From Fibrobacteria bacterium (GTDB lineage Bacteria > Fibrobacterota > Fibrobacteria > UBA11236), in NCBI GenBank assembly GCA_043745805.1, contig JAYTSD010000017.1, positions 64,001 through 128,000 on the forward strand: 64,000 bases of DNA. The letters are read 5' to 3'. The stretch's first letter is position 1. Each line of letters starts with the position of its first letter. Below are positions 6,807 to 64,000 of this stretch, in pieces. A model generated the notes under the pieces. The model made no database searches and was not told the origin of the DNA. It was given only the letters and a program-made list of their open reading frames with translations. The position numbers and the translations under genes were made by a program.

Positions 6807-6967
6807 AACCCCAGAGTTGCCTTTTTTGGTACACTTGTAAATATAAAGCTATTGCATAAAATTCAAAAGATTGGAACCCTTATTCCCATTTGGAGCATTA
6901 TTAACAACAAATTTGTGCGCAAGTGCCTTATATTTACTGGGGGAATAAATAAAGTTTAGGGGACAAT

Positions 6968-9025
6968 ATGCAAATTCAGCGAGTTTTAATTTTCATGGCA
7001 TTATTGTCCCATGCGATTTTTGCACAACAAGTTTGTGATTTGACTTTTACCGATTGTCCAAAAACTTTTAATGGAAAAACCTTGGTGGTGGGCAATGATA
7101 TTAAATCCATTGCTGCGAAAATAAGATATTGTACGGAAGGTCAAGTGGTTTCAGGTGGAACAAGTGAGCCAGTTTCCATTGTTTTTATAATTGATAATTC
7201 AGGAAGTATGCGCGGCGGAGATGGCAATGATCCATCAAATGCTCGATTTAATGTTGTTCCTGAATTGATTGATACGCTTTATAAAATTTCACCAGATGTC
7301 GAAGTCGGATTGGTTGTATTTACCAGACGTCTTTTATTTGATGATAGAGTAAATCCTTATTTTAAATCACTATTTAATGATGGTGTTCAACATGACGGTT
7401 ATGTCCCGCTCACTGCACTGAACAAATCATTTGGCAATGGCAAATTAGGTGTAGATACATTAAAAGCATTTTTAAAAATCAATCCCAATGTTGATCTTGT
7501 AAATGGCTTAAATGAGTCCAATAGATATGCATTTACAAATGGACGTAGAACAAATGCGAATGCGAATGACAGTACTAATATTAAAGACGGTACAGATATA
7601 AACCTTGGTTTTGAGGCCGCGAGAGCCGCTATGGCAAGTTCAAAATTTACGGATAAAAATAAACATTTTTTTATTTTCCTATCCGATGGCGAACCTTCTG
7701 GAGTAGATAAAGGCCGACCAGCACAAGATTTGTTTAGATATGGAAGAAATGTACCCACTACTTTCACCATATTTTTTAATAAAGATCCTAAAGCACCTGC
7801 CCCTGGATTAATTACGGAGATGACGGATAGCATTAAAATTAATCACTACTCAACCATCAGCAATCCTAAAAGCAAAGTGACCACTAGTGCTAATCCTAAA
7901 AATGAACTAAAACAAATTCTTTTTCAAAATGTATTCTCTAACATCATTGTAAACAGCAAAGCCAATCAATTTACGCTCAATGATCGCGTATCAACCACTT
8001 CCGACGGTACAGATTTTACCTTTAGCAAGCGCTATCCGTTAAATGCCGACAAAACCGATGTCAAAATGCAAATCAGTTATAACTATAGCGATAATAATGT
8101 GGTTAAGTCAAAAACTGATACCATTAACTTTACCGTGCAGCGCAGTGCCACAGCCACTTTGGCACCAGGATTGGATGCAGTTTGTCATGCTCCCGCCACG
8201 GTAGCGCTTTATTCCAATGGCCAACCCATTACCACGGTTTTGGATGAACAAAAAACTTTGGAAGCGCGTGTTACCTTGCCTACTGGGGAAACTTGCATAG
8301 GTTGCTTTACCACCTTAAGTTCAAGCAATGGAACCGACATTGAAAAATTAAATTTGGCAGCGAACAAAACAATTCTTTCCGGAAACTTTAATCGTTCTAT
8401 TAATTCAAATCCTTCTAAAAATGGTGCGTTAGAGCATGCCGAAACAGATAATATTATTTTAGTTTATCACAATGCCGACGTCCCTTTGGATACGATACGC
8501 GTAAGTTACCCTTTTAAATTTATCCCTCTGATTCCAGGCGATTTAGTAGTGTCAAACCATAATACGGTAGCTAAACCTCAAATCAGTGAAATGTCAAATG
8601 ATTCCCATCAATGGACATTAGTGGGGCCATCTAATTTGCAAGTTGAAAGTAGTGATGCTACTAAGTGCTGTAAAATAATTGATGCCGAGCATGCCAAAAC
8701 AGAATTCTCTTCTTATGTCGGTTTTGTTTTGCAGGCTTCTCGTGCTTTTTCCGTGGATGTAAAAGTCTTCGATCATTTGGGATTGTATATCAATAAATTG
8801 CATTTAAAAGTTTCACAAAATGAATTTGATAAATTGCCTAAAGGCTCAACAAAGGGCACGAGCACTCTAAGTTTATTATGGAATAGTCGCACTGAGGACG
8901 GTGGCTTTGTGGGAACCGGCGTGTATATTTTTAAAACACAGATGCATTTAGAGCCTTTAGCAGGGGCGAAAGATGCGGATAGTAGCTTTGTGCGCACTTA
9001 TGGAGTACTTCGAGCTAGCTATTAA
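6968..9025 (+). CDS. Secreted VWA-domain protein with FlgD-Ig-like C-terminal domain
   Basis: Signal peptide (...HAIFA-QQ); MIDAS motif DNSGSM, GT and FLSDGEP; C-terminal VFDHLG...WNSRTEDGGFVGTGVYI; GGGGA SD. Confidence 0.8.
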   Translation: MQIQRVLIFMALLSHAIFAQQVCDLTFTDCPKTFNGKTLVVGNDIKSIAAKIRYCTEGQVVSGGTSEPVSIVFIIDNSGSMRGGDGNDPSNARFNVVPELIDTLYKISPDVEVGLVVFTRRLLFDDRVNPYFKSLFNDGVQHDGYVPLTALNKSFGNGKLGVDTLKAFLKINPNVDLVNGLNESNRYAFTNGRRTNANANDSTNIKDGTDINLGFEAARAAMASSKFTDKNKHFFIFLSDGEPSGVDKGRPAQDLFRYGRNVPTTFTIFFNKDPKAPAPGLITEMTDSIKINHYSTISNPKSKVTTSANPKNELKQILFQNVFSNIIVNSKANQFTLNDRVSTTSDGTDFTFSKRYPLNADKTDVKMQISYNYSDNNVVKSKTDTINFTVQRSATATLAPGLDAVCHAPATVALYSNGQPITTVLDEQKTLEARVTLPTGETCIGCFTTLSSSNGTDIEKLNLAANKTILSGNFNRSINSNPSKNGALEHAETDNIILVYHNADVPLDTIRVSYPFKFIPLIPGDLVVSNHNTVAKPQISEMSNDSHQWTLVGPSNLQVESSDATKCCKIIDAEHAKTEFSSYVGFVLQASRAFSVDVKVFDHLGLYINKLHLKVSQNEFDKLPKGSTKGTSTLSLLWNSRTEDGGFVGTGVYIFKTQMHLEPLAGAKDADSSFVRTYGVLRASY

Positions 9026-9057
9026 TTTTTAAGAATTTTCAGCATTTATTTTTTACC

Positions 9058-9089
9058 TTTTCTCCGTGGTTTATTAACCAAGGAGAAAA
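9058..9089 (+). promoter_or_regulatory. Hairpin occluding the gcvT Shine-Dalgarno sequence
   Basis: TTTTCTCCGTGGTT-TATT-AACCAAGGAGAAAA pairs 13 of 14 bp; the right arm contains AGGAGA just upstream of ATG 9091. Confidence 0.5.
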
Positions 9090-9090
9090 C

Positions 9091-10209
9091 ATGTCGATTG
9101 ATGTGTCTGCTATTGAGTCACTCGAAAAAAAGACGCCGCTATTTGCGGAACATGTAGCCTTAGGTGGCAAAATGGTTCCTTTTGCTGGTTTTTCTATGCC
9201 CGTACAATATTCCGGAATACGAGTTGAACATGATGCAGTGCGACAAAAACTAGGTCTATTTGATGTTTCACATATGGGCAATATTTTTGTGCAAGGCAAG
9301 GCCGCATTATCTTTTTTACAAATGTTAACTGTAAATAATGTGGAAAAATTGCTCCCCTTTAATGTGCAATATTCTGCTTTTTGTTACTCCAATGGCACCG
9401 TACTCGACGATATTTTAGTCTATAACTTAGGCAATAATACCTATCATATTGTGGTCAATGCTTCGAATATCAGTAAGGCTTGGGCTTGGTTAAACGAGCA
9501 TTTACTTCCTGAAGTATCTTTGCATAATGCCAGTGAAGAGCTGGGTATTTTGTCTTTACAAGGCCCCTTTTCGGAACAAGTGGCACAAAAAATTTGCGCA
9601 TTGAATTTATCGGATGTGAAATATTATTCGGCTTTTAGAACCGAAGTGAATGGTGTGAATATGTTGGTAAGTCGCACGGGATATACCGGAGAAGACGGCT
9701 TTGAATTTTTTCCTGAGAATGTTGACGCACGAAATTTATGGAAAAAATTAATCGAGCTAGGTTCCGAATATGGTATACTGCCCATAGGACTGGGAGCGAG
9801 AGATACCTTGCGATTAGAAGCGGGATATTCTTTATATGGCCATGAACTTTCGGATCAAACGAATTTATTAGAGGCCGGCTTAAGTTGGATTACGGATTTA
9901 AATAAATCTGATTTTATCGGCAAAGCAAGCTTAGTGCAAAAAAAAGCAAGTGGCTTGCAACAGAAAATTGTGGGCTTAGAATTATTAGAAAAAGGCATTC
10001 CTCGTGAGGGTTGCGATGTAGAATATCAAGGCGTGAAGGTCGGGCAATTAACCAGTGGTACAATGTCACCTACGCTTATAAAGGGAATTGGCCTAGCTTA
10101 TCTTCAATCCAATTTAACCGTAATAGGTCAAGAGGTGAATGTGGTGATTCGTGAACAAAGAAAAAAAGCAAAAGTTGTAAGTCGTTATTTTTATAGAAGG
10201 AAGAAGTGA
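9091..10209 (+). CDS. gcvT: Glycine cleavage system aminomethyltransferase T
   Basis: KTPL...GGKMVPFAGFSMPVQY, GLFDVSHMG, SRTGYTGEDGFE, GLGARDTLRLEAG. Confidence 0.97.
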   Translation: MSIDVSAIESLEKKTPLFAEHVALGGKMVPFAGFSMPVQYSGIRVEHDAVRQKLGLFDVSHMGNIFVQGKAALSFLQMLTVNNVEKLLPFNVQYSAFCYSNGTVLDDILVYNLGNNTYHIVVNASNISKAWAWLNEHLLPEVSLHNASEELGILSLQGPFSEQVAQKICALNLSDVKYYSAFRTEVNGVNMLVSRTGYTGEDGFEFFPENVDARNLWKKLIELGSEYGILPIGLGARDTLRLEAGYSLYGHELSDQTNLLEAGLSWITDLNKSDFIGKASLVQKKASGLQQKIVGLELLEKGIPREGCDVEYQGVKVGQLTSGTMSPTLIKGIGLAYLQSNLTVIGQEVNVVIREQRKKAKVVSRYFYRRKK

Positions 10210-10210
10210 A

Positions 10211-12985
10211 TTGGCGGTAAAAACAGCCGGCAAAAGCCCCAAAGAAAAAAAATCATCTATAGCGACAGTGTCTTCCAAAAAGAAAAAAAAGGGAGATACC
10301 AAAGAACAGTCGAAAGAACATGCGCCTACGCGTTTAGAAATTCCCGGACTTTTTTTGCTTTCTATTGCATTAATCTCGGTAATAGCTTTACTTTCCGAGT
10401 TTGTAAAATTCAGTGGAAATAATTTATTAGGTCCTTATTTGGGGGAGTGGTGGGCCTATACTTTAAATGCTACCGTCGGTAGTTTACCTATATTATTCCT
10501 TTTAACGGCTATTAGCATTTTAGGGTTTAAATGGATTTGGCCGCGAGAGGAAAGACATTACAAATTCGTGTATGTTTTTCTGTTATTATTTCTTTCGTCG
10601 GGCCTGTTATTAAGCGTCCATAATATTCCTAAGCCATTGCTCTTGGCCACCGACTATTCACTTTCGGGTGGTTATGTGGGTAATTTTTTAGTGCAAACTT
10701 TTTTTATTCCCTTATTTGGTAAAACTCAATTTGGGCCTTATTTAATAACCTCTCTAGCGATTCTCTTTACCTTGGTTTGGGGCTATAAAGTGAGCGTTGC
10801 CGCAGTGGTGGAAAAAGGTGGCGTCTTGATGGGGAGCTTAGTCTATCCGGTTTTTGACGGTTTAGCGAAGCACAAAAAAGATCGTAATGAGAAAAAATTA
10901 CAAGCGCAAAGCGAAGCGGCTTTGATTGCCTCACTTTCTCCCTTAGAAGCGGCGACTTTACCGACACGAAAGCGCCTTAAAAAAGAAAATATCTTAGCAC
11001 CCGAAAAAGAAAATCCCAATAAAATTAAGGAAACTGGAACGTTACCTACTCTTCTGGCTAGGGATATAGAAATGGAGGACGAAGAAGATTATGCCGAAGA
11101 AGATGATGGTATTGACTACTCCGATCCTTTAGCGGTGCGAAAATCACGCGATTTAAATTTAGAACGTCAACGAGTTACGGAACTTAATGAATGGGAACAA
11201 AAAAGTCGAAGTCCTGAAATTGCCGGTCTTTTACTTAAAGAAAAGCTTAAGGAAAACCTCCATGATAAAGACAGTCATGGCAAAGAAGTAAAAGGTAAAG
11301 AAACGGGTAAAGAAATTAAAAGTGGTAAATCCGAAGCGCCTCATAATGAAAATAATGATTTGCGGGGAGTGGAGAATATTCCAGTCGATGGGGATGCATT
11401 TGGTGAAGAAGCGGATGTAGAGGAAGAAACCTTTGCGCCAATAATACCAATGAAAAAAGCTGCCGCGCGAGGATCTATTCCCAAGCCTGAACAGAATACT
11501 CCGCAGGTTAAATATGATAAATATATGGTTCCAAGTTTGAATACCATGTTTAAAGATCCACCCGTGCAAGCCGTTGAATTTACCGAAGACGAATTGCGTG
11601 AGCAAAGTAAAATGTTAGAAGCGCAATTGCTTAATTTTAAAGTGATGGGCAAGGTCATGCAAATTTGTCCGGGGCCAGTTATTACACGCTATGAATTGGA
11701 ATTAGCTCCTGGTGTAAAAGTTAATCGTATTAGTAGTTTGGCCGATGATTTAGCCTTAGCACTTAAAGCCAAAAGCATTCGCATCCTGGCACCTATACCT
11801 GGTAAATCCTTAGTTGGTGTGGAAGTCCCCAATCGCAAGGCGCAAATTGTTTATATCAAAGATATTCTTCAATGCACAGAGTTTAGTACCGAAGAAGACA
11901 CTTTAAAAATTTGTTTAGGCAAAACCGTTGCGGGTGATCCTTATGTGATGGATTTAACACGTGCGCCACATTTATTAATAGCTGGACAAACGGGATCGGG
12001 AAAATCAGTTTGCATAAATAGTATTATGGCTTCCTTTTTATGTTCTAAAACACCCGATGAATTGCGCATGATATTAGTCGATCCCAAAGTGGTTGAACTT
12101 AAACCTTATGATGAAATTCCACATTTACTTTATCCTGTGATTACTCAGCCTGAAGTGGCGGTACAGGCTTTGAAATGGTCAACCTATGAAATGGATAGAC
12201 GTTATGAAGTTTTAGCGCTTTGTGGGGTGCGTAACATTAAGGGCTTCAATCAAAAATTTCGCGAAGGCAAATTAAGCGAGAAATTAGATGAAGCCGACAG
12301 TAATCTCATGCCCTATATTGTTATTGTGATCGATGAATTAGCAGATCTTATGATGGTAGCAGGCAAAGAAGTGGAAACAAATATCGCGCGCATTGCCCAA
12401 AAGGCACGCGCCGTGGGTATTCATTTGATTTTAGCAACGCAACGCCCATCTACTAATGTTATTACAGGAACGATTAAAGCCAATTTACCGACACGCATTG
12501 CTTTCCAAGTAGCAAGTCAAATCGATGCGCGTACCATTATGGATAAAATGGGTGCGGAAAAACTTTTGGGACGTGGGGATATGCTTTTTCGTCCTATTGA
12601 ATTTCCCGAACCTATGCGTTTACATGGATGTTACCTCGATGATGACCAAGCGCAAGAATTGGCCAAGGCCGCTTCCCAGCAACATGTGAATTATCCGCAA
12701 TTACCAACTTTTAATTTGGACGATGATCCCAGTAGTATGGAAAGTTCAGATGAACCGCGTGATGCTAAATTTCGCGATGCGGCAGAATTAGTGGTTCAGC
12801 TTAAACAAGCCTCCGTGTCCTTATTACAAAGGCGCCTAGGCATAGGTTATGCTCGTTCGGGCCGTTTAGTGGATCAATTGGAGCGTGCAGGCATTGTGGG
12901 TCGTGAACGAGGAAGTAAACCTCGCGAAGTGCTCATGACTGAAGAAGAATTAAATTCATTTTTATCTTCCGGTTTAAACGACTAA
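10211..12985 (+). CDS. ftsK: DNA translocase FtsK
   Basis: N-terminal TM helices, acidic linker, PHLLIAGQTGSGKS, VIDELADLMM, ATQRPS, gamma domain SLLQRRLGIGYARSGRLVDQLE; TTG start. Confidence 0.97.
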   Translation: MAVKTAGKSPKEKKSSIATVSSKKKKKGDTKEQSKEHAPTRLEIPGLFLLSIALISVIALLSEFVKFSGNNLLGPYLGEWWAYTLNATVGSLPILFLLTAISILGFKWIWPREERHYKFVYVFLLLFLSSGLLLSVHNIPKPLLLATDYSLSGGYVGNFLVQTFFIPLFGKTQFGPYLITSLAILFTLVWGYKVSVAAVVEKGGVLMGSLVYPVFDGLAKHKKDRNEKKLQAQSEAALIASLSPLEAATLPTRKRLKKENILAPEKENPNKIKETGTLPTLLARDIEMEDEEDYAEEDDGIDYSDPLAVRKSRDLNLERQRVTELNEWEQKSRSPEIAGLLLKEKLKENLHDKDSHGKEVKGKETGKEIKSGKSEAPHNENNDLRGVENIPVDGDAFGEEADVEEETFAPIIPMKKAAARGSIPKPEQNTPQVKYDKYMVPSLNTMFKDPPVQAVEFTEDELREQSKMLEAQLLNFKVMGKVMQICPGPVITRYELELAPGVKVNRISSLADDLALALKAKSIRILAPIPGKSLVGVEVPNRKAQIVYIKDILQCTEFSTEEDTLKICLGKTVAGDPYVMDLTRAPHLLIAGQTGSGKSVCINSIMASFLCSKTPDELRMILVDPKVVELKPYDEIPHLLYPVITQPEVAVQALKWSTYEMDRRYEVLALCGVRNIKGFNQKFREGKLSEKLDEADSNLMPYIVIVIDELADLMMVAGKEVETNIARIAQKARAVGIHLILATQRPSTNVITGTIKANLPTRIAFQVASQIDARTIMDKMGAEKLLGRGDMLFRPIEFPEPMRLHGCYLDDDQAQELAKAASQQHVNYPQLPTFNLDDDPSSMESSDEPRDAKFRDAAELVVQLKQASVSLLQRRLGIGYARSGRLVDQLERAGIVGRERGSKPREVLMTEEELNSFLSSGLND

Positions 12986-52744: not shown

Positions 52745-53691
52745 AAGAAGATATTTTGAAAACACGCATCGCACCGACACCTAGTGGCTATTTACATATG
52801 GGAAATATTTGGTCCTTCGTTTTAACTTGGCTGATTGTTAAGCAAAACAAAGGTAATATTCGCTTACGCATCGACGATATGGATACGCCACGATTTCGCG
52901 AAGCTTATTTAGAGGATATTTTTGCTTCTTTAAAATGGATGGGCCTCACATTTGACGAAGGCCCCAAAGATTGTGGAGAATTTCATACTAGTTTTTCGCA
53001 AAAAATTCGTTTGGATCAATATCAAGAAGCCTTATTGCATTTATGTTCTTTGCAGGTGAATGGCCAGCCTTTGGTATATGCTTGCTCCTGTAGCCGCGAA
53101 AAAATCCGTCTTGCCGCCATAGCTTCAGGTAACCCCAAGGTTTATCCTGGCACTTGTCGCGATAAAGGGCATGATATACTTAACCCCAGTCATATCTTGC
53201 GAGTGAATGTACAAGGCATTGCTATTTTTAAAATCAAGGATAAATTACTCGGCGAAATTGATTTTAATCCGCAACAAGATATGGGTGATTTTGTGATTAG
53301 GCAAAAAGATGGATCACCAGCTTATCAACTCACTTCCTTAATCGATGATCAACTTTATGCCACAGATTTTATTGTACGGGGACGGGATTTACTTTTGTCA
53401 ACAGGAGCGCAATTATTATTAGCCCAGCAGTTAAAAATCGATTCCTTTTTAAACTGTGAATTTGTGCATCACGGTTTATTAACCGATGCTAAAGGGCATA
53501 AGCTTTCTAAATCCGAAGACGCGAAATCCTTAAATAATATTCGCCGCACCAAACCTACACCAGAATTTTTAATTCGGTATCTCGCCAAATTTGTGGGAGT
53601 GAATGAAGTGAAAACATTAGCCGATTTACTATTACAATTTGATTTTAAAAAAATTCCCAGTGAAGATCATATTTTGGAATTTAATGCCTAG
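52741..53691 (+). CDS. gluQ: Glutamyl-Q tRNA(Asp) synthetase-like protein
   Basis: RIAPTPSGYLHMGN, LRIDDMD, CSCSR...YPGTC, GDFVIR, RGRDL, KLSKS; no anticodon-binding domain. Confidence 0.85.
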   Translation: MKEDILKTRIAPTPSGYLHMGNIWSFVLTWLIVKQNKGNIRLRIDDMDTPRFREAYLEDIFASLKWMGLTFDEGPKDCGEFHTSFSQKIRLDQYQEALLHLCSLQVNGQPLVYACSCSREKIRLAAIASGNPKVYPGTCRDKGHDILNPSHILRVNVQGIAIFKIKDKLLGEIDFNPQQDMGDFVIRQKDGSPAYQLTSLIDDQLYATDFIVRGRDLLLSTGAQLLLAQQLKIDSFLNCEFVHHGLLTDAKGHKLSKSEDAKSLNNIRRTKPTPEFLIRYLAKFVGVNEVKTLADLLLQFDFKKIPSEDHILEFNA

Positions 53692-53702
53692 GTATCTTGT
53701 AT

Positions 53703-53838
53703 AGAGTCACGGAATGATTAAACCTAAATTTTCAAGCAGGATCATATCGGTTTAACGCATTACTAGGTCTTAATGTGGCCGGTGCATATGCTTTGAAAAC
53801 TATGGATTAGGGTGAGGCTTTTGCTTCACCCTTTTTTT
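53703..53838 (+). ncRNA. Candidate structured small RNA (long irregular hairpin plus terminator)
   Basis: Nested helices 53729-38/53789-99, 53745-51/53778-84 and 53756-62/53771-77 with several G-U pairs that work only on the + strand; 5' end is a guess. Confidence 0.45.
53810..53838 (+). terminator. Rho-independent terminator
   Basis: GGGTGAGGC-TTTT-GCTTCACCC-TTTTTTT. Confidence 0.9.
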
Positions 53839-54207
53839 GTCAAATTTTTACCTTAGATTTTGACATTAGCGGGACAAATTTTCCCAAAAAACATGGATTC
53901 CATAGATAGAGATAAAGAAAGGAATTAGCTTTTCTCATCGATCATTTTTAAAATAGCATTGGGGAATGTGATACAAAATATCCATTATAATCATCTAAAC
54001 TTTGAAGAACGCTTGCTAAGCCCAAATTTGGGGTTTGGTTTAAAGTTGATATCGATATTAAAAAATCATTGCAAATCCATTGCAAATCAAGGTTTATTAA
54101 AAATTTCAGGAGTATTAAGCCCATGGTTGTCCAACCCTTGGTTTTACCAAATTCAAAGGGACTTAAATTCGGTTCTAACAACAAAATCGACTTCTGTGTC
54201 CAGCTCC

Positions 54208-54708
54208 ATGGTAATGGAAACGGAAAGTCCAAATACTCTTTCTTTGGAAGAGTTGTACAAAAAATACAGTGCTGCGCTTTATTGGGTTTGTTCTCGCTAT
54301 ACACGCAATCGCGAAGATGCTGAGGACATGGTTCATCAAGTTTTTATGAAGGTTCATCTCAATCGCCATCAATTTCAGGGTGGCAGTAGTATTTATACTT
54401 GGATTTATCGCATTGCGGTCAATGAATGCTTGCAAATGCTACGCAAGAAAAAATTTGAAAAAGAGGGAGAATTATTTCCTGGTTTAGAAAATAAGTTGGT
54501 TTATTTTCCTGAACGAACTATGGATGCCAAATTAATTTTGGAAAAAATCACTAAAACGGTTGATATTAAAACTATGGAAATATTATTTCTGCTTTATCTC
54601 GAAGATCATAAACAAGAAGATGTTGCAGAAATGTTGAATATTTCGCGTGCCACGGTTAATCGTAAAATTGCCCACTTTAAAATTTTAATGACACGCTTCA
54701 AATGGTAA
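54208..54708 (+). CDS. ECF sigma-70 factor
   Basis: DAEDMVHQVF, F...SSIYTWIYRIAVNEC, region 4 QEDVAEMLNISRATVNR; ATG 54208 or 54214 gives a typical ECF length. Confidence 0.92.
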   Translation: MVMETESPNTLSLEELYKKYSAALYWVCSRYTRNREDAEDMVHQVFMKVHLNRHQFQGGSSIYTWIYRIAVNECLQMLRKKKFEKEGELFPGLENKLVYFPERTMDAKLILEKITKTVDIKTMEILFLLYLEDHKQEDVAEMLNISRATVNRKIAHFKILMTRFKW

Positions 54709-55553
54709 GGCCAACTCTCGAATCCGGAAGTGCAGAGATGCCCTCCGAAAAAAACATTCATCCTTCTAGGCTTATTTTAACAAACTTTCTCAATGGGGAT
54801 TTAAACTCTGAGCAACAAAAGGAATTTAATCACCATGTGCTTGGTTGTCTTCAATGCTCACAAATCATATCTGAGGCGCGACAAGTAACCTCCGAGTTCA
54901 CTCAAAAATTTCCAACTTTTGCTTCTCTAGATAGCAAATTTGGAATAAAATATTCATCCCGCTTAAGACCAACCTTTGTAGAAAGGCTGAAGGGGTTATG
55001 GCAAATTTTTGAAAGTAATATTTGCTATGCCATTTCGCCAAAAATCGCGTGGGCCCTTGTGTTGTTTTTTGTTGTAGGCGTAACTTGGATATTCAATTTA
55101 AAGTCTTTAAATACACAAGGTCAATCTTATAAAGGGCAAACTCGCTTCACACTTTTTCGAAACGGACATCAAGTATTGAAAGATACTTTTTTTGCCGAAC
55201 CACTGGATACCTTACAATTAATAATTACTAGTCCTGAACCCGTTTATTATGCAGTGCTATATCAAGATGATACTGCCGCTTTAGAAATTTATTTGCCCGA
55301 GCTGGGAAAAGAAAATTTATCACTGGGTAATGCCCATGGCGAACCCTTGCCGCATAGTTTGATTTTAGATGCAAGTTGGAAAAACGAAATTTTATATTGC
55401 TTATGGGGAAGCAAACCGATTTCCTTGTCTGAAATGACTTTAAATAAACTTTCAAATAGGATAATTAAAATTGATCCAAAAGATTTACGCAATTGGATGG
55501 ACAAGAAAAATATTCACTATCAAGTTTATTACTTAAATAATAGTTTACCATGA
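54702..55553 (+). CDS. Zinc anti-sigma factor (HxxxCxxC), single TM, periplasmic DUF4384-like domain
   Basis: HVLGCLQC; TM IAWALVLFFVVGVTWIF; then KG...YYAVLYQDD...YLP...LPHSLILD..E; start could be 54738. Confidence 0.8.
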   Translation: MVRPTLESGSAEMPSEKNIHPSRLILTNFLNGDLNSEQQKEFNHHVLGCLQCSQIISEARQVTSEFTQKFPTFASLDSKFGIKYSSRLRPTFVERLKGLWQIFESNICYAISPKIAWALVLFFVVGVTWIFNLKSLNTQGQSYKGQTRFTLFRNGHQVLKDTFFAEPLDTLQLIITSPEPVYYAVLYQDDTAALEIYLPELGKENLSLGNAHGEPLPHSLILDASWKNEILYCLWGSKPISLSEMTLNKLSNRIIKIDPKDLRNWMDKKNIHYQVYYLNNSLP

Positions 55554-57130
55554 AATGGCCACACTATAAATTATTGCTGGCTTTGCTTTTTTGTTTTCAT
55601 CCCAGTTATGCATTAATAAAAATGGCCTTGGTAATAGGTAATAATACCGGAATGGATGATGAAAAGCCCTTGCAGTATGCCACGCGCGATGCCAAGCAAA
55701 TTTATGAGACCTTAGGTCAATTAGGAGGAATGGATAAAGGCAAAAGCTATTTATTGTTAGATTTATCCGTTGCCAAAGTAATGACGGCATTACGTGAGGC
55801 CAGTAATCGCATACAAACTTTGCATAAAGAAAAACAAAAAGTACAGCTGCTGATATATTTTTCGGGTCATGGCAGTGAGGATGCTTTGCATTTAAATGGT
55901 GAGAAATTGCCCATTGCACAAATCCGTGAATATTTTACCAGTATGGACGCGGATTTAAAAATTTTAATTGCGGATGCTTGTTATAGTGGGTCATTAATTC
56001 AAGCCAAAGGGGCTAAATTAGGGGCGGTCATTCCCGTTAAATACTCTGATGAATTAAAGGTAAATGGATCTGCTATTTTAACGTCTAGTTCCGCAGGAGA
56101 ATTGTCACAGGAATCTCAAGATTTTCACGGTTCAATTTTTACGCATTATTTTTTAACTGCCATGCGTGGAGCGGCGGATTTTGATCGCGATGGACAAATT
56201 ACTTTATGGGAAGCCTATAACTATACGCAATTGAATCTTCGACGAAAATCTATGACAAATAAAGGTTTTGTACAAAATCCAGGATTCGATATTGATGTAA
56301 ATGGTTCGGATAATGTGATTTTGACACACTTAGATTTAGGTCAAGCTCTGCTAAGTTTCAAGGGCTTTACCGAGGGGCAATATCAGATTTTAGAAGCGAA
56401 TAGCACATTGCAAGTTGCCGAAATAGATTTATCAGGTGGGGAAGGGGTAACTTTAGCATTACCTAAAGCCAATTATTTAGTGTATCGCTCTTCTCAAGGT
56501 AAGGCTTGGGCGGTATGGGCGGATTTGCGGCAAAACAAAATTACAGAAATAAATCCGTCCCTGTTATATCCGATTTCCATGGGCGCTTTAGCCGCAAAAG
56601 GCGGCGATGGAGGCTTAGAAGCTAAAGGCTTGCTAATACCTAGAGAAATAAACTCTTATCACTTAGCCTTGCATTCACGTTTATACCCTTATTTTCCAGG
56701 GCGAAAAGAAACGGCAACGAGTTGGATGCTATCTGCCGAGAGTCAATGGGAAACATGGAGTTTTTTACTCTCAGGAAGTTTTTTACCCACCTTACAAACT
56801 TTAGTAAAGGGTAACCGTTTTACTCAAACTGGATATAGTATTGGCGGAGAATTACGCTATTATTTTTATCCTACGCATAATAGTACTTGGCATTTGGGAC
56901 CGCATTGGGAAAGCTGGTTTTTGCAACAAAATTTAAATGGAAAAACCCTTGGCCAAGGAAATTTACTTGGCACTATGGGAAGCTTGGGTGCAGACTGGAT
57001 AATATTTCATCGATTCACTCTTGGCTTTAACTGGGAGCCTGGTATTTTTTTGCATTATGATAAGGCTGCTATATTACAAAAAGATTTCGCATCTCCAATT
57101 TCAATAGGCGTAACAATGGGTTTATGGTAA
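55550..57130 (+). CDS. Exported caspase-family (C14, clan CD) protease with putative C-terminal outer-membrane beta-barrel
   Basis: Signal peptide (HPSYA); ALVIGNN, YFSGHG (His 55868), IADACYSG (Cys 55979), FTHYFL..MRGAADFDRDGQITL; amphipathic strands ending ISIGVTMGLW. Confidence 0.88.
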   Translation: MKWPHYKLLLALLFCFHPSYALIKMALVIGNNTGMDDEKPLQYATRDAKQIYETLGQLGGMDKGKSYLLLDLSVAKVMTALREASNRIQTLHKEKQKVQLLIYFSGHGSEDALHLNGEKLPIAQIREYFTSMDADLKILIADACYSGSLIQAKGAKLGAVIPVKYSDELKVNGSAILTSSSAGELSQESQDFHGSIFTHYFLTAMRGAADFDRDGQITLWEAYNYTQLNLRRKSMTNKGFVQNPGFDIDVNGSDNVILTHLDLGQALLSFKGFTEGQYQILEANSTLQVAEIDLSGGEGVTLALPKANYLVYRSSQGKAWAVWADLRQNKITEINPSLLYPISMGALAAKGGDGGLEAKGLLIPREINSYHLALHSRLYPYFPGRKETATSWMLSAESQWETWSFLLSGSFLPTLQTLVKGNRFTQTGYSIGGELRYYFYPTHNSTWHLGPHWESWFLQQNLNGKTLGQGNLLGTMGSLGADWIIFHRFTLGFNWEPGIFLHYDKAAILQKDFASPISIGVTMGLW

Positions 57131-59064
57131 TCGCAACCAAGAGCATTAGGTTTCCGTTACTTATAGGTTACTTTTACCTATTAATCACCGGTATTTTTGT
57201 GTGTTCTTGTCTAAAAGAGAATCCAGTAATTTTACCGGAAACAATTTATGATGCCAAAACTTTTTTGCCGCTCGATTCACTTTATCGTTTTGATTCCGTG
57301 ACCATTACCATAATGAATGAAAAGGATATTACGCAACATAAAACTATATGGTTAGCTCCGGTTAAATATTCCTCAGAATTTCCGGTATTCATTTCTGGAG
57401 AACAAGAAAATCTATATCTCGATATTAAAGGTTATAAAAAAATTAAAGGATCATTGCCTTGCTACAAAGCAACAAGTAAACAGGGTAATTATTGGGTAAA
57501 TATTGATACATGTGATATTATTAACAGTATTTTGATTATCGATTCCATAGCATGGTCCGATTCCATTGTAGATTTTGATAGCCTAGATACAGAAAAAAAA
57601 ATCATATTTAATTTAGTTGGAAATAAAATTCATTCCTTAAACCTGACTCCGACTTCGAATTACCTACTCTTATTACCACCCTTTCAATTGGATTCTAATC
57701 ATAAACAAATAGAAATTCGTATTAAAATTATCCGTGATAGTTTGAGCAAGAGCTTGTATTCTACGGCTTATTCCATTACAGATAATGGCCTTAAGGTGGG
57801 GGAAATAAAAATCAAATTCAAAGTTGCAGAAAAGCTACCAGTCATAATATCTCACAAGGACAGTTCAGTAGTAAAATTGAAGGTACTTAATAAAATAGAT
57901 TCACTTCCGGTGTCAGGTGCTAAAATAAATCTGGATGGTAAAGATTTATTGGCGTTAACGGATTTAACGGGAAAAATAAAATTAGATTCGCTGGCCCTTG
58001 GTCAGCATAAGTTTTTTGTCACAATAGCAGATAGATTGGGAATTATTGATTCGATGAATATCACATACTTTGATACTGTGGTTTCATTCTATTTACCTCC
58101 TAAAACCGTATTGCAGAATTTAGCGGTGGGATGGAGCGCACCTAGTTTAGCGAACTTTACAACTTTTCAAAATCAGGCCATCTTTTTAAGTCAAGATATT
58201 CAAAGTTCGGGATTAGTTTTGAAATTTCCACTTAACAATTTGGACCCGCGACTACAAAGCACGATCGAACAAGGAAATAAAACTTTAGCAAATCCACCTG
58301 AAATTTTTGATGCCATTAATTCTGTTGCGGATGCCACTAATCTTTATATTACTTATCCAGATGTAAATAGAATTGGAAAAATAAGTGATTGGCAGAATAC
58401 TAGTGCGGCGAGCAACACCTTACTTGCATTTTCACCTTACGGTTTATTATTGGAAGGAAATAGTCTTTTTAGTATTGGACGTAATCAAAAAGAACAATTG
58501 ACACTAGCGGAATTCAATACAACCGATTTTTCCATTATTAAAATGGATACACTAGGTAACTTTAAATGGGATGAATTAGATATTTCTAATCGTGGACCTA
58601 AAATGGTCTCAACTCCAGATGCGTTTTATGTGGTCGATGGAAATGGACCACAGCAAATTGGGAATCTTATTAAGGTCAGCAAAACTTCACGGAATATTCT
58701 TGTTAGTCAACAAACAAAATCCGCACAAATTTCCGATATTTGTATTTATAAGGACCGAATTTATATCACTTCTCATGGTTCAAGTATTGTGGAAATTTAC
58801 GATTTTAATTTAGTGCCCAGTGGAATAATCAATATTGGAAAATCAGTAGAAAAAATTTCCATTGTGCAGAGTGGCTATTTGCAGGGGACCGGATTTTTGA
58901 CCACCAATGATAATTCAGTGCAGGTGATAAATACAGAAGCTAAATTAGTTATTGGCTCTTTAAGCTTACCCGTTGGGGAGCGATCCAAAAACATTATTTT
59001 CAATGCGGCCATAGCAAAATTAATCGTCACAACGGTTAATAAAATTTATATCGCAGAATTTTAG
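57124..59064 (+). CDS. Putative lipoprotein with carboxypeptidase-regulatory-like Ig domain and C-terminal beta-propeller
   Basis: Lipobox-like FVCSC-LKE; PVSGAKINL....TDLTG....LALGQH; YncE-like repeats (LYITYP..NRI, IYITSHGSSIVEIYD, DNSVQVIN). Confidence 0.65.
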   Translation: MVIATKSIRFPLLIGYFYLLITGIFVCSCLKENPVILPETIYDAKTFLPLDSLYRFDSVTITIMNEKDITQHKTIWLAPVKYSSEFPVFISGEQENLYLDIKGYKKIKGSLPCYKATSKQGNYWVNIDTCDIINSILIIDSIAWSDSIVDFDSLDTEKKIIFNLVGNKIHSLNLTPTSNYLLLLPPFQLDSNHKQIEIRIKIIRDSLSKSLYSTAYSITDNGLKVGEIKIKFKVAEKLPVIISHKDSSVVKLKVLNKIDSLPVSGAKINLDGKDLLALTDLTGKIKLDSLALGQHKFFVTIADRLGIIDSMNITYFDTVVSFYLPPKTVLQNLAVGWSAPSLANFTTFQNQAIFLSQDIQSSGLVLKFPLNNLDPRLQSTIEQGNKTLANPPEIFDAINSVADATNLYITYPDVNRIGKISDWQNTSAASNTLLAFSPYGLLLEGNSLFSIGRNQKEQLTLAEFNTTDFSIIKMDTLGNFKWDELDISNRGPKMVSTPDAFYVVDGNGPQQIGNLIKVSKTSRNILVSQQTKSAQISDICIYKDRIYITSHGSSIVEIYDFNLVPSGIINIGKSVEKISIVQSGYLQGTGFLTTNDNSVQVINTEAKLVIGSLSLPVGERSKNIIFNAAIAKLIVTTVNKIYIAEF

Positions 59065-59108
59065 CAGAGAATATTTTCAAATCATTTTAAAAATAATGAG
59101 GGTTTTTT

Positions 59109-62100
59109 ATGGTAAAAATGCCGGTTGGTTTTTTTTCTAAGGCTTTATCGAAGATCGTTTTCATAAGCGTGATTACACACTGTGCATCGATATATGCGCA
59201 AGAGTTTATAGTACTAAAAGACAATATTCGTAGTTTACAAGATCGTTCTTATAACTCGGCTGAAGTGGGAGAAATGAAAGGGCAAGTATCCTTTTTAGAT
59301 TTCAATTCCGATGGAAATAAAGATTTAGTGTTTTCGGGAAATTGTTGGCCTTCACCTGGGTGCATAGAATTATATCAAAATACAAATGGTGTATTTTCTA
59401 ACACCCATGCCTTTGATAGTCTCGAAAATTATCATTTGCAGGCCGGCGCTTGGGCAGATATTAACCATGATGGTAGCTTAGATTTTGTGACCTATGAGGA
59501 AAGAAATAATATTCGCTTGGCAAAATTTTATACTTACAATGTAACACAAAAAAAAATATTGCCTTTGAATATAAGTTTACCCACGGGTAAATGGACAAAT
59601 TTAAGCTTTAGTTTTTGTGACATTGACAATGATAGCTTTCCTGATTTACTAGTGAGTGGTCTGGTAGATTCTTCGCTTTTTTGGCCGCCATTCACTGAAG
59701 TTTATCATAATGAAAATGGCAAAAGTTTTAAAAGTATGAATATGGGCTTGTTACCTATGTGGAATGCGAATATGGCTTGGGCCGATTTTGATAAGGATGG
59801 ATATTCCGATTTATATATCACCGGAAACACAGGGGTTAAAAATTTTTCTGCGATTTATCCTACCTCCATGGCCACAAGGGTTTATCGTAATAATATCGGC
59901 AAATTAAATTTATACGCAACCTTGCCCAGTTTGGTTTATGGAGGTGCGGCGTGGGGAGATTATGATGGCGATGGAAAATTAGATTTAGTCGTTTCTGGAA
60001 CCCGTATGCCAGGCAATACTCTTCCTGCAACGCTTTTATATAAAAACAATGGTACGGGTTTTGATCTGCAAACGAATACGCCCTTTGATTCCTTATGCTT
60101 TGGATCGGTTTCTTTTGCGGATATGGACAAGGATGGTGATCCCGATCTTTTGTTAACCGGAGAAATTTCCGAAAGTGCACCGCTCACCAAAATCTTTCGC
60201 AATGATAAAAGTGTGTTTGTAGATATGCAATCCAATTTACCTTCCCTCACTCATGGTGTTTCATCGTGGGGCGATTTTGATGGGGACGGAAATATGGATA
60301 TCTTTTTAAGCGGAATAAATGCCAATAAAGAATCCAGCGCACATTTATTTCATAATATTCGTGGTGATTTTGAGCCCTTAAATAGTTTTTCCTCACCTAT
60401 TATTGCCTCAACACTACATTGGATAGATTATGATAATGATAAAAAGTTAGACTTTTTTATTAGCGATAATTCTGAAAGCAAGCTTTATCGGAATATCGGT
60501 AATGGGCAATTTTTAGCAGAGAATACAAATCTTCCTATAGGTTCTACGCAATCCGATTTAGGTGATTTTGATAATGATGGTAAAGTTGATATTGTGATGG
60601 TTGGCACAAACACTGCTACAAATGATGCCGTAACTATTCTTCAAAATAAAGGGGATGGAAATTTTTTAGATACCAAAATAAAAATTTTAGGCACAACTAA
60701 TCCGGGGCTTATAACCATTGACGGCGCTAAATGGGGGGATTATGATAATGATGGAAAATTGGATTTGGTGGTTTGGGGACATGATTATAAAATTGGAAAT
60801 AACCCTTTTACTAAAGTTTTTCATAATGAGGGGGACTGGACTTTTTCTGAATTAACAAAAATTTTTACCGGCATTACTCGCGGTCAAATTTCATGGGGTG
60901 ATTTTAATCGAGATGGTCGATTAGATTTAGCCTTAGCAGGGGATAGTCTTGAGAGCTCTTATACTCCCTTTGTTAAAATTTATCGTAATGAAAATGGAGT
61001 ATTAAATACCACTAATGATAATATTAGTCCATTATCGCATACTTCTTTTGCATGGGGTGATTTTGATAATGATGGGGATCTTGATTTTGCCCTTTCTGGA
61101 GAATACCGTGTAGGATCAGCTTTTGATTCAACCATAACCCGTATTTTTAGGAATAATGGAGGGGTTTTTGAACAATTTGGACAAAGTTTGATCGGTGTTT
61201 TTAATGGCCAAATCTTATGGATAGATGCGGATAATGATGGTGATCTAGATCTAATTATGAATGGGGGTTATCTAGATTCTCCTTATAAAAATGCCCGAAT
61301 TCTACGCAATGAAGGAAATCGTTTTACTGCAATTCCTCCGGTTTTCCCGAATTATTCCCCAACAGTTATGGATGTGGGTGATTTTGATGGCGATGGAAAA
61401 GTTGATTTACTGGTTTCGGGATCAAGTTGGAGTGTTCCCTCAGGAACTTTTATTTATAAAAACACAGTACTCACAGCTAATACTTTGCCTTCAGTTCCCC
61501 CAAATGCCAATGCGACTTTAGGTTTTTCGTCCGTTACTTTAGCCTGGGATAATTCCACCGATAACGAAACTTCTTCTTCCGGTTTGCAGTATAATGTGCA
61601 AGTCGGTAAAGCGAGCGGAGGGTTTGAAATATTATCGAGTGCGTCCCATTCCGATGGAATTCTCAGGGCCAATCAAATGGGTAATGCTTCACATGCAAAT
61701 TTTAAAAATCTTATTGGACTTGCTCCAGGAAAATATTTTTGGAAAGTACAAGCCATAGATAATGCCTTAGGAGGCTCTTCATTTTCGCCGGAAGGGAAGT
61801 TTACCATTGGCATTACTACACCAACTTTGTTGGAAACCGGTGCAGGTAATTCACAAGTGACTTTGAAATGGAAGAAATTGACTGATTCTAATTTCCAGAG
61901 ATATTATCTCTATTACGGCTTAATCACTAATCCTAGCAATAAAATGGATTCTGTATCACTCGCTAATGATACGGTTAAAGTTATTTCGGAATTACAAAAT
62001 GGACAGCTTTATTATTTTCGAGTTTCAGCTATTGATCAAGGGGGAAATCCTAGTGGTTACTCTAATGAATTAACTGCCATACCCGATGGAACGCCTCCCG

Positions 62101-64000
62101 CTATTCCCAGTGGATTGGTCGCAGTGGGTAATGATCGAACGGTTACTTTAAGCTGGAAAGCCAATACCGAAAATGATTTTCTCTGCTATTTCATTTATCA
62201 GCGAGCGTCCAATGGAGCATTATTCCTTATTGATTCTATTGCGAATATTAATCAAGTTTCAAAAACAGTTACGGGATTAAAAAATGGATCGGCTTATGCT
62301 TTTGTAATGTCTGCGGCGGATAAAGTTTTAAATCATAGTGGATTCTCCCAAGAGGTTCTAGCTTCTCCCTTTTATTTAGTGAGTAGCTCATTGAATAATT
62401 TAAACTTTGGAAAAACTCATATTAGTATTTATAAAGATTCGGTATTAATGCTTAATAATTCGAGTTCCTTGCCTGTAACCTTAGATTCAATAGTAATTTC
62501 AAATAGTAATTTTGCTATAACTAGTCCAATAAAGCTGATTCCTGCTAGTGGGCAGCTAATTTTGTCTATAAGGTTCAATTGTCTTCAGTCAATGGGAGGT
62601 GATTTTAATTCTACGTTAAAAATTTATTTTGGAAATTCTACCATCGAAATATCTTTATTGGCAAAAGCTGTGGCTAATCCGTATAGTACAATTGAACAGG
62701 CAAATCCCTCACCTGCAATATGGGATACTACATCCAATATTGCTTTTTTAGCGAGTGCCGATGATTCGGATATTGCTGGCACTGGGGATAAAATTGCATC
62801 CTATTTATGGTCCTCGAATCTTAATGGTATTTTACCAAGTACTAAAAACAGTTTTTTAATACACCCGTCGGGGTTCAAAATCGGTAATCACAAAATCTCT
62901 TTAAGGGTTGTGGATAATGATGGGGATACCTCAGCGATAGTGGAAAAACTTTTAACGATTAAGGGGCGAAAACCTTTTGCCAAAATCGATTCTATAACTC
63001 CCAAGAACCTTATCCTCCGAGGATCAGATAAACCTCATTTTTCATTTACCTCGTATGACCTCGATGAATTAGCAAATTCGGATCATGATAGTTTAGTTAA
63101 TTTTGGAATTTACTCCACTTTACAAGGCAAAATTAGCAGTAATAAAGATACTACCTTGGATTCCATCTCTCTGCAATTAGGTTTACATGGTTTTTATGCA
63201 CGTGCCATTGATAATGAAGGGGATACGGTATTTTCAGATACCCAATGGATTCCTGTTCAAACAGGGGTGGGATTAGCAGTATTAGTTGCGGGCTCACCTT
63301 TTGGTGATTATCGATACCTTTTTGAAAATATCTCCCCCAATTGTAATTGGGCTTATGCCAAATTACGTGAACGAGGATTTACCGATGAATTAATTCAATA
63401 TTTTAATCCAGTGGGTTGGCAAAGTATTGGCGATTCTTTTAGCAATAGTGGTATTGTAGACGTTACCGATATGACGGTAAAAAATTTACGCAAAGCTATA
63501 TTGGATTTGAAGCCTAAGGTTGAAAATGGTGTGCCTTTACTTATATCCTTTTTGGGTCATGGGACCAACAATACTCAATTAGGTAAGTTTTATTTAACTC
63601 CTACTGAGTTTATTACTCCTGATACTTTGAATGCTTGGTTAAATACTTTTACCATTTCTAAATCCATGAATTCTCCTATAGTTATATTATTAGACTTTTG
63701 TTATGCGGGTACTTTTCTCAATAAGTTAAAATCATCTACGCAAAATCGTATTGTAATAGCTTCAGCAGCAGCGGATAGAGTGGCTTATTTTGATGGGGGC
63801 CGATCATTTAGCTATAATATTTTTAAGCAAATTTCCAAAGGCAATAATTTGGCTCAAGCATGGAATACAGCCAATATTTGGTCTGCAAATCTTGGACAAA
63901 ATGCAAGCATCTCATCTAATCCCCAAATGAATGCGAATAGTGATAATAATTACAATGATCTATTAGATATAAATGTATTACAAAACATTTATGTTGGAGG
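59109..64000 (+). CDS. Large exported protein, 3'-truncated: 14 FG-GAP/VCBS repeats, Fn3-like, Ig/PKD-like domains and a C13/legumain-like clan CD peptidase
   Basis: Absent from the ORF track, consistent with no stop before the window end. GAGGG SD, ATG 59109, signal peptide (SIYA-QE); DxDxDGxxD repeats 59298-61410; LAVLVAG, FLGHG (His 63558), ILDFCYAG (Cys 63699). Confidence 0.88.
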   Translation, partial: MVKMPVGFFSKALSKIVFISVITHCASIYAQEFIVLKDNIRSLQDRSYNSAEVGEMKGQVSFLDFNSDGNKDLVFSGNCWPSPGCIELYQNTNGVFSNTHAFDSLENYHLQAGAWADINHDGSLDFVTYEERNNIRLAKFYTYNVTQKKILPLNISLPTGKWTNLSFSFCDIDNDSFPDLLVSGLVDSSLFWPPFTEVYHNENGKSFKSMNMGLLPMWNANMAWADFDKDGYSDLYITGNTGVKNFSAIYPTSMATRVYRNNIGKLNLYATLPSLVYGGAAWGDYDGDGKLDLVVSGTRMPGNTLPATLLYKNNGTGFDLQTNTPFDSLCFGSVSFADMDKDGDPDLLLTGEISESAPLTKIFRNDKSVFVDMQSNLPSLTHGVSSWGDFDGDGNMDIFLSGINANKESSAHLFHNIRGDFEPLNSFSSPIIASTLHWIDYDNDKKLDFFISDNSESKLYRNIGNGQFLAENTNLPIGSTQSDLGDFDNDGKVDIVMVGTNTATNDAVTILQNKGDGNFLDTKIKILGTTNPGLITIDGAKWGDYDNDGKLDLVVWGHDYKIGNNPFTKVFHNEGDWTFSELTKIFTGITRGQISWGDFNRDGRLDLALAGDSLESSYTPFVKIYRNENGVLNTTNDNISPLSHTSFAWGDFDNDGDLDFALSGEYRVGSAFDSTITRIFRNNGGVFEQFGQSLIGVFNGQILWIDADNDGDLDLIMNGGYLDSPYKNARILRNEGNRFTAIPPVFPNYSPTVMDVGDFDGDGKVDLLVSGSSWSVPSGTFIYKNTVLTANTLPSVPPNANATLGFSSVTLAWDNSTDNETSSSGLQYNVQVGKASGGFEILSSASHSDGILRANQMGNASHANFKNLIGLAPGKYFWKVQAIDNALGGSSFSPEGKFTIGITTPTLLETGAGNSQVTLKWKKLTDSNFQRYYLYYGLITNPSNKMDSVSLANDTVKVISELQNGQLYYFRVSAIDQGGNPSGYSNELTAIPDGTPPAIPSGLVAVGNDRTVTLSWKANTENDFLCYFIYQRASNGALFLIDSIANINQVSKTVTGLKNGSAYAFVMSAADKVLNHSGFSQEVLASPFYLVSSSLNNLNFGKTHISIYKDSVLMLNNSSSLPVTLDSIVISNSNFAITSPIKLIPASGQLILSIRFNCLQSMGGDFNSTLKIYFGNSTIEISLLAKAVANPYSTIEQANPSPAIWDTTSNIAFLASADDSDIAGTGDKIASYLWSSNLNGILPSTKNSFLIHPSGFKIGNHKISLRVVDNDGDTSAIVEKLLTIKGRKPFAKIDSITPKNLILRGSDKPHFSFTSYDLDELANSDHDSLVNFGIYSTLQGKISSNKDTTLDSISLQLGLHGFYARAIDNEGDTVFSDTQWIPVQTGVGLAVLVAGSPFGDYRYLFENISPNCNWAYAKLRERGFTDELIQYFNPVGWQSIGDSFSNSGIVDVTDMTVKNLRKAILDLKPKVENGVPLLISFLGHGTNNTQLGKFYLTPTEFITPDTLNAWLNTFTISKSMNSPIVILLDFCYAGTFLNKLKSSTQNRIVIASAAADRVAYFDGGRSFSYNIFKQISKGNNLAQAWNTANIWSANLGQNASISSNPQMNANSDNNYNDLLDINVLQNIYVG

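Follow-up and report, generated by a model that had tools for sequence, protein, structure and literature searches.

A conserved trio of ECF sigma factor, anti-sigma factor and exported caspase-like protease in Fibrobacterota, with a shared Lys-Gly motif that suggests activation by proteolysis

Sigma factors of the extracytoplasmic function (ECF) type form one of the three principal routes by which bacteria sense the outside, and for most ECF groups the activating step is, to our knowledge, unknown. A locus at the end of a 64,000-nucleotide stretch from a Fibrobacteria bacterium (GenBank assembly GCA_043745805.1, contig JAYTSD010000017.1, forward-strand positions 64,001 to 128,000; hereafter the window, numbered from its first letter) raises the question of this step directly. 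An ECF sigma factor gene (g1) and an anti-sigma factor gene (g2) are followed there by genes for an exported caspase-like protease (g3), a probable lipoprotein (g4) and a giant repeat protein (g5). Does the protease turn the sigma factor on by cutting its inhibitor? A Lys-Gly (K-G) motif shared by the protease and the anti-sigma factor suggests, as far as sequence can tell, that it does, and a probability of about 0.5 is given to the reading in which g3 would be the dedicated, cognate site-1 protease of g2.

The protease gene g3 (55550..57130, plus strand) encodes 526 amino acids, comprising a signal peptide (residues 1-21, read by eye), a caspase domain (22-250), an immunoglobulin (Ig)-like sandwich (245-342), a disordered tether (351-364) and an 8-stranded barrel (370-525). 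The protein was matched by Peptidase_C14 at 5.8e-17 (62.6 bits; cut-off 21.4). An AlphaFold2 (AF2) model showed a mean predicted local distance difference test score (pLDDT) of 88.4, with barrel strands mostly above 90. Foldseek aligned the barrel with OmpA (9fzc, TMt 0.69) and NspA (1p4t, TMt 0.67), and the caspase plus sandwich with MALT1 caspase-Ig3, caspases, legumain and metacaspases. No Pfam barrel model matched g3 itself; one g3 homologue carries PF13505, and the C-terminus of g3 is G-L-W, with an aromatic final residue. The earlier description of g3 as a signal-peptide caspase with a barrel thus agreed with both the family match and the OmpA-like barrel of the model. Because an OmpA/NspA-like barrel has an even number of strands, the caspase is placed in the periplasm, and the model implies that it faces this compartment, the barrel fixing it to the outer membrane on the periplasmic side.

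The catalytic dyad of g3 consists of H107 (55868-55870) and C144 (55979-55981), spanning 55868..55981 on the plus strand, with D142 two residues before the Cys. Both dyad residues were invariant in 58/58 and 80/80 sequences, and D47, D142, E188 and D210 were kept in 80/80. When the profile of the g3 family was compared with solved sequences, only metacaspases were returned (7/7), and in these alignments the Asp residues of the CxxD and DxC motifs of metacaspases corresponded to D47 and D142, respectively. In the accessible part of a study of the metacaspase TbMC2 (PMC6426788), Asp95 and Asp211 form the pocket holding the basic P1 residue, and C14B enzymes are described as cutting after Arg or Lys. 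Since D47 and D142 correspond to this Asp pair, the acidic metacaspase-type S1 pocket shows g3 to be a C14 protease of predicted Lys/Arg type. Like the Arg/Lys-specific C14B metacaspases, g3 has the DxC motif and a second acidic pocket residue, and like MALT1 it has an Ig-like domain following the caspase domain (the caspase-Ig3 arrangement). Unlike MALT1 and the type I/II metacaspases, it is exported, bacterial and barrel-anchored, and its identity to solved structures is 12-18%.

Two conserved K-G sites lie at flexible positions of g3 itself. The first, K153-G154 (56006..56011, plus strand), opens a low-confidence loop (153-166, pLDDT <50) nine residues past the catalytic Cys and is a candidate autoprocessing site; at this position K was found in 77 and R in 3 of 80 sequences, and G in 80/80. 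For comparison, the cut in caspase-3 and caspase-7 falls 12 residues beyond their catalytic Cys. The second, K350-G351 (56597..56602, plus strand), opens the disordered tether to the barrel (pLDDT <50) and is a candidate release site, with K in 52 and R in 25 of 80 sequences and G in 76/80.

The third K-G site belongs to the anti-sigma factor. Gene g2 (54702..55553, plus strand) encodes a single-pass protein of 283 amino acids with a cytoplasmic helical anti-sigma domain (23-69), a membrane helix (113-135) and a periplasmic Ig-like sandwich (148-279). The AF2 model of g2, built on a 75-sequence alignment, had a pLDDT of 81.5; the N-terminal helical domain was confident, the model contained one membrane helix, and the beta-sandwich (148-236) was followed by two helices and a strand. 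The cytoplasmic helical domain is of the class that sequesters ECF sigma factors. A zinc-binding anti-sigma (ZAS)-type motif, H45-x3-C49-x2-C52 (54834..54857, plus strand), was read in the sequence, so that the former account of an HxxxCxxC anti-sigma factor with one transmembrane segment and a periplasmic domain was borne out by motif and model alike. H45, C49 and C52 were kept in the six closest orthologues, yet in only 23-24 of 150 family representatives from the library.

The candidate site-1 cleavage site of g2, K144-G145 (55131..55136, plus strand), is located 10 residues past the membrane helix and precedes the first strand by 3 residues. It was invariant in 21/21 sequences of the Fibrobacterota alignment. 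In a second set, which includes six duplicates of the first, the position held K/R in 65/67 and G in 67/67; in the 75-sequence non-redundant alignment G was invariant and K was present in at least 90%; and among the best 150 library representatives K was found in 149/150 and G in 150/150. The family is large: a library of 1.84 billion representatives contains 4,853 of its clusters (50% identity) when E is limited to 1e-30. At 15-20% identity, K-G is almost the only conserved sequence in the family; D169, L222 and E229 of g2 were conserved as strongly. The gap between the membrane helix and the K had a median of 16 residues (range 8-80). The top match of the anti-sigma profile, P0178, is a protein of 758 amino acids with five matched stretches, which is perhaps a family member in fused or repeated form.

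Family assignment of g2 by profile was less direct. A word-index search with g2 returned g2 alone, and its homologues were therefore drawn from the loci of the neighbouring gene. No Pfam match to g2 itself was obtained, including zf-HC2 (PF13490) at E up to 10, DUF4384, the FecR family, CHAT and TPR. Among 21 g2 homologues, zf-HC2 matched six (best 4.8e-10) and DUF4384 (PF14326) matched two, under its cut-off. The best DUF4384 score, 21.3 bits against a cut-off of 27 (profile positions 3-79), came from the anti-sigma factor of a second module in the same genome, two further homologues being weaker; the DUF4384 assignment put forward for the anti-sigma factor is accordingly weak. The fold of the g2 domain gave no PDB match at E up to 0.001, returning generic Ig-like sandwiches only. 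A common origin of the g2 periplasmic domain and the g3 sandwich was considered and rejected (hhalign probability 0.3%).

The trio of genes is widely conserved. Within the class of the source genome, 31 of 41 genomes contained matches to g3, with up to 12 copies in one of them; this tally includes the source genome and an unpublished genome (G021), on which no other claim rests. The Fibrobacterota set comprised 20 loci, namely the six full-length g3 matches outside the source genome and G021, thirteen of the better partial matches and the second copy of the source genome. In 20/20 of these loci an ECF gene was located upstream of the caspase gene on the same strand, and between the two stood an open reading frame (ORF) of 227-333 amino acids (20/20) with a membrane-type hydrophobic segment in 19/20. 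A phmmer search with g2 recognised this intervening ORF in 13/20, and the alignment of all of them was coherent. A second set was obtained by a pattern scan with one genome per species, which gave at least 600 stretches; 587 of those listed encode a relative, and the best 80 were read. These 80 loci are mostly from Myxococcota, with eight from Fibrobacterota and one each labelled Thermoanaerobaculia and Rickettsiales, and six of them are the same DNA as six of the 20 above. The order ECF, anti-sigma, caspase on one strand was found in 58/80; the anti-sigma and caspase genes with no ECF gene found occurred in 13/80, in six of which the contig ends there; and neither ECF nor anti-sigma gene lay upstream in 9/80, five of which have the pair adjacent in another arrangement. 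Conservation of the triplet in other genomes, chosen beforehand as the point on which the idea could fail, was observed in 20/20 Fibrobacterota and 58/80 other loci. Across the 100 loci, the anti-sigma family nearly always adjoins a caspase-family protease. A genome may contain as many as 12 copies, each within a trio of its own, and this fits cognate partnership.

Taken together, the [K/R]-G at three linker positions, the Lys/Arg-type pocket, the linked genes and the periplasmic geometry are the grounds for proposing the caspase as a site-1 protease. In the proposed mechanism, an envelope signal would lead g3 to activate itself by a cut after K153, in the loop past its catalytic Cys, and g3 may also free itself from the barrel anchor by a cut after K350. 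The protease would then cut the anti-sigma factor after K144, leaving a stub of about 10 residues that a site-2 protease of the RseP type could clear, thereby releasing the sigma factor. An M50 protease of this type is encoded elsewhere in the genome (213 bits). The freed g1 would transcribe its own operon, with the lipoprotein g4 and g5, a substrate of the type IX secretion system (T9SS), as output. The sequence-only reading had proposed that the caspase processes or binds the anti-sigma factor to release the ECF sigma factor. The pocket, the K-G motif, the periplasmic topology and the RseP-type gene speak for that proposal, while cleavage or binding itself is what we infer from them. For a predicted complex between g3 residues 22-352 and g2 residues 130-283, the scores were 0.04 and 0.03 (mark, 0.32), values that carry no verdict either way.

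Several points weigh against the proposed role of the protease. The K-G position is fixed relative to the first periplasmic strand and not relative to the membrane, the gap to which varies between 8 and 80 residues. Because the motif is fixed to the domain, and D169, L222 and E229 are equally conserved, K-G could be a structural or docking motif pairing with those residues. From its tether at the outer membrane, the protease has to get to a site some 10 residues away from the inner membrane, so that release or a long reach would be needed. The sigma/anti-sigma pair is missing upstream on the same strand in 9/80 loci, and the HxxxCxxC motif of the sub-clade would also be compatible with control by zinc or redox state. 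Autoregulation and the assignment of g4 and g5 as output are assumed by analogy, since no shared ECF-type promoter motif exceeded shuffles in paired k-mer counts of 67 upstream regions and subsets of 5 and 16. One candidate pair, CCAAA-N17/18-TCGG, was common to 3/5 orthologues and was rejected as not significant.

In the main rival explanation, the caspase would be an output of the sigma factor and not its activator. The anti-sigma factor would sense through its own Ig-like domain and either undergo cleavage by a general protease or be released in a non-proteolytic way, the K-G would be structural or serve docking, and the caspase, the lipoprotein and the T9SS protein would all be envelope effectors. 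ECF operons often hold regulon genes directly downstream, the downstream genes here differ between copies, and the placement of K-G relative to the domain, with other domain residues equally conserved, is what a fold or ligand motif would give. The same explanation leaves unaccounted for the recurrence of [K/R]-G at two flexible linkers of a Lys/Arg-type protease. Nor does it explain why the caspase, alone of the downstream genes, is kept beside the pair across phyla. It is regarded as possible, though on the whole doubtful.

The downstream genes bear on another alternative. A same-strand ORF followed the caspase gene in 65/80 loci, 31 of these being lipoprotein-like by a crude rule. In many of the myxobacterial downstream lipoproteins, a Y-[RK]-G-x-P-L-x-[TS]-[VL]-[KR]-G stretch was noticed by eye after the lipobox Cys, so that a basic residue followed by Gly occurs there again; a stretch of the Y-[RK]-G type was seen in loci L061, L064, L068, L077, L079, L098, L106, L111, L116 and L119. 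Signal flow could be reversed or parallel, the periplasmic domain of g2 binding and restraining the caspase, whose true substrates would be the co-encoded lipoprotein or surface protein (matured or shed) or other envelope proteins. The R-G/K-G motifs at the start of these lipoproteins are in keeping with such substrates, and g5 and the second module's T9SS protein, both large surface proteins, may require processing. Against this, g4 and g5 are confined to one sub-clade whereas the trio is general, and once secreted, T9SS cargo has left the cell, while the caspase faces the periplasm. Reversed or parallel flow is considered quite unlikely.

A role in cell death or defence against phages, in which the caspase would be a self-harming effector restrained until infection, is suggested by the best NCBIfam match of g3, the conflict-system family "caspase, EACC1-associated type", at 67 bits against a cut-off of 140. 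In type III CRISPR systems, proteases of caspase type also target proteins resembling anti-sigma factors, as described in the accessible part of PMC10028731, where the CRISPR-associated Csx29 cuts a sigma-binding protein. The surroundings of the locus point the other way. The flanks look housekeeping, with recO-like and gluQ-RS-like genes upstream and trmB-like, gatB and rho genes downstream (from ORF translations only), and no NTPase, EACC1 or CRISPR genes adjoin it as judged by reading of the ORFs, PADLOC not having been searched. Moreover, g3 is exported and barrel-anchored, in contrast to the cytoplasmic caspases of conflict systems, and a defence-island context was absent across the 100 loci. 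This role is held to be very improbable.

The proposed site-1 function of g3 can be set beside systems that have been studied. In RseA/DegS/RseP, the anti-sigma factor is cut first in the periplasm near the membrane and then by an M50 site-2 protease. The same order, periplasmic and then M50, is proposed here, and an M50 gene is present. The site-1 enzyme of the sigma-E system is a shared inner-membrane PDZ serine protease, whereas this role would here fall to a caspase-family Cys protease at the outer membrane, dedicated to the task and encoded alongside. The FecI/FecR/FecA system has the order ECF, anti-sigma, outer-membrane barrel, the barrel protein having a periplasmic N-terminal part that faces the anti-sigma factor, and the gene order found here is the same. 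FecA, however, is a 22-stranded TonB-dependent transporter with a signalling domain, whereas g3 combines a small 8-stranded barrel with a protease, and g2 has no FecR-family match.

The nearest studied system is DdvA/DdvS of Myxococcus xanthus, a fused caspase-like anti-sigma factor with its sigma factor, on which a structural study appeared in 2024 (PMC11506125). According to the accessible part of that study, the ECF sigma factor is held by a single-pass zinc-type anti-sigma factor, and a periplasmic His-Cys domain of caspase fold is proposed to make the first cut before RseP, as in the mechanism outlined above. In DdvA the TPR-CHAT region (about 900 residues) is inside the anti-sigma factor and would act on the dimer partner, whereas a separate C14 protein anchored in the outer membrane is found here. 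The periplasmic part of g2 has only about 140 residues, without CHAT or TPR match, and its hhalign probability against the caspase protein was 0.3%, so that it is not of the DdvA type. DdvA also controls an island of the cyclic-oligonucleotide-based anti-phage signalling system (CBASS) and CRISPR, again from the accessible part of the source, whereas the g1-g5 operon carries envelope and surface proteins.

Association of the genes has been recorded before. Sigma-70-family factors in metacaspase operons were listed by Asplund-Samuelsson et al. 2012 (PMC3501461) for Myxococcus xanthus (4/5 metacaspases), Anaeromyxobacter, Haliangium, Sorangium, Ralstonia and Fibrobacter, which is the same gene association as here; the accessible part of that paper reports co-occurrence only and mentions no anti-sigma factor, barrel anchor, cleavage motif or mechanism. 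ECF54 has been linked to CHAT-domain neighbours (PMC8999054, accessible part). The main text of the ECF re-classification (PMC7826278) contains no C14, peptidase, DUF4384 or CHAT, while its supplements list group neighbourhoods and may name this group. Full-text literature searches found no paper describing a mechanism for the separate C14/anti-sigma/ECF trio. The statement that no mechanistic description was known has to be qualified by the association catalogued in 2012 (PMC3501461) and by the fused DdvA studied in 2024 (PMC11506125).

What would be novel in the trio is a dedicated caspase-family protease acting in trans on an anti-sigma factor, the wider principle of regulated anti-sigma proteolysis being known. 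If the protease is the site-1 enzyme, the trio would represent a widespread and so far unstudied activation route; bacterial homologues of caspases would thereby acquire a defined, non-lethal function, and the trio would supply protease, substrate and sigma parts that are likely to be orthogonal. An extension of this idea, which we consider unlikely, is a distance-based envelope tripwire, with the outer membrane bearing the protease and the inner one its substrate. Only the self-cut at K350, for example when the barrel or the outer membrane is disturbed, would let the protease reach the anti-sigma factor, and myxobacteria and Fibrobacterota would keep many orthogonal trios, each switching on a different surface protein. 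Such trios would serve the cell surface as caspase-based analogues of two-component systems.

The sigma factor gene g1 (54208..54708, plus strand; 166 amino acids) was assigned to the ECF (group IV) class by Pfam and NCBIfam matches. Sigma70_r2 matched at 4.9e-16 (58.7 bits; cut-off 24), Sigma70_r4_2 at 9.2e-7 (28.9 bits; cut-off 25.7) and TIGR02937 at 80 bits (cut-off 42.9), all in line with the ECF sigma factor claimed earlier, and the nearest solved sequences were SigR, SigW, AlgU-type, SigH and RpoE. The frame of g1 is open upstream to a TTG at 53959 (249 amino acids), and orthologues are 165-210 amino acids long. Since the 83 extra residues match no sigma domain and exceed what the orthologues show, the ATG at 54208 (or 54214) is the likelier start.

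All five genes are same-strand ORFs (plus strand), found at the coordinates claimed beforehand, and their arrangement as four overlapping genes with a fifth 44 bp on was confirmed to the letter. The g1/g2 junction is ATGGTAA at 54702 (7-nt overlap), the g2/g3 junction is ATGA at 55550 (4-nt overlap), the g3/g4 junction is ATGGTAA at 57124 (7-nt overlap), and g4 is followed by a 44-bp gap and the ATG of g5 at 59109. The 5' boundary of the region is marked by a terminator-like hairpin (53809..53832, plus strand; 10-pair stem and then a T run) 3' of the upstream gene, and on the other side a convergent gene follows g5 after 48 bp. The overlaps, the short gap and the upstream hairpin mark g1-g5 as a single operon, which is read as serving envelope-spanning signalling. 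Sigma-70-like promoter sites in 53600-54300 numbered 0, against 2.9 expected from shuffles. No RNA sequencing run containing the stretch was listed; the four runs that contain it are sediment-metagenome DNA from one study, two of them perhaps its source.

The particular feature of the version described here is its five genes, the last of which encodes a T9SS-sorted giant protein with a His-Cys domain of its own. Gene g4 (57124..59064, plus strand) encodes a probable lipoprotein of 646 amino acids, with a lipobox-like VCSC read by eye and no Pfam or NCBIfam family match. Its middle part appears Ig-like or CarboxypepD_reg-like and its C-terminal half propeller-like, as leads only (weak CarboxypepD_reg and NHL matches in orthologues); structure-atlas matches of 0.84 or less are likewise leads only.

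Gene g5 begins at 59109 (59109..64000, plus strand) and had been taken as complete in the window; it ends 634 nt beyond, which places its sorting domain outside, and encodes 1841 amino acids with a T9SS type A tail (full span 6110-11635 of the extended stretch L004). It contains FG-GAP propellers with at least 10 FG-GAP repeats (FG-GAP_3, 1.2e-65), fn3 (3.3e-12) and a CD-clan His-Cys domain. The dyad is H1484 (63558-63560) and C1531 (63699-63701), on the plus strand, within GHG and DFC..G motifs that were invariant in 17/17 relatives, and the Peptidase_C13 match reached 16.3-18.7 bits, under the cut-off of 22.8. The second His-Cys protease seen earlier in g5 is thus supported as regards the dyad and not as regards membership of C13, and the domain, judged from its residues, is called CD-clan-like without family assignment. 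At the C-terminus, TIGR04183 scored 24.4 bits (cut-off 23), or 28.9 bits in the genome scan, and FlgD_ig matched at 1.2e-8. The source genome encodes an SprA-like protein (SprA_N, 110 bits), SprA being the only machinery gene searched, and 50 sorting domains over the cut-off.

Conservation of g4 and g5 does not extend past the nearest sub-clade. The two were found together in loci L025 and L030 of relatives and g4 alone in L029, while in L026-L028 the similarity to g4 was N-terminal only. There are 14 full-length g5 orthologues, seven of which are perhaps on the same contig as a g3 orthologue, which is suggestive only. The description of the last two genes as a variable sensor or cargo was a fair one, given this restriction and the T9SS sorting of g5.

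The second module of the source genome is located on contig C44 (26800-43700; minus strand, 2764-10467 of that stretch, L042). Its order is ECF, anti-sigma, a caspase of 691 amino acids, two unknown genes (281 and 296 amino acids) and a T9SS-sorted protein of 748 amino acids with a Por_Secre_tail match at 1.4e-8, so that 2/2 modules of this genome end in T9SS cargo. T9SS cargo as the general output was rejected: a same-strand TIGR04183 match within 10 kb downstream was present in only 2/33 caspase copies from five relatives, as cross-matched by eye. This count is a lower bound, because the search missed the g5 orthologue of relative G011.

In G011 (contig C320, L037/L052), an ECF gene, an anti-sigma gene and a caspase remnant of 178 amino acids are followed by a complete trio, with a third caspase gene about 10 kb on; these tandem modules suggest expansion by local duplication. 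In locus L035 (6378-7090) of one relative, two ORFs of 127 and 117 amino acids take the place of a single ECF gene in the module, which may reflect a frameshift or an assembly error. Elsewhere on the contig of the window, a T9SS sorting-domain match at contig positions 70546-70791 closes an open frame of 6712 amino acids, so that a giant secreted protein runs in over the upstream edge of the window as far as about window position 6791.

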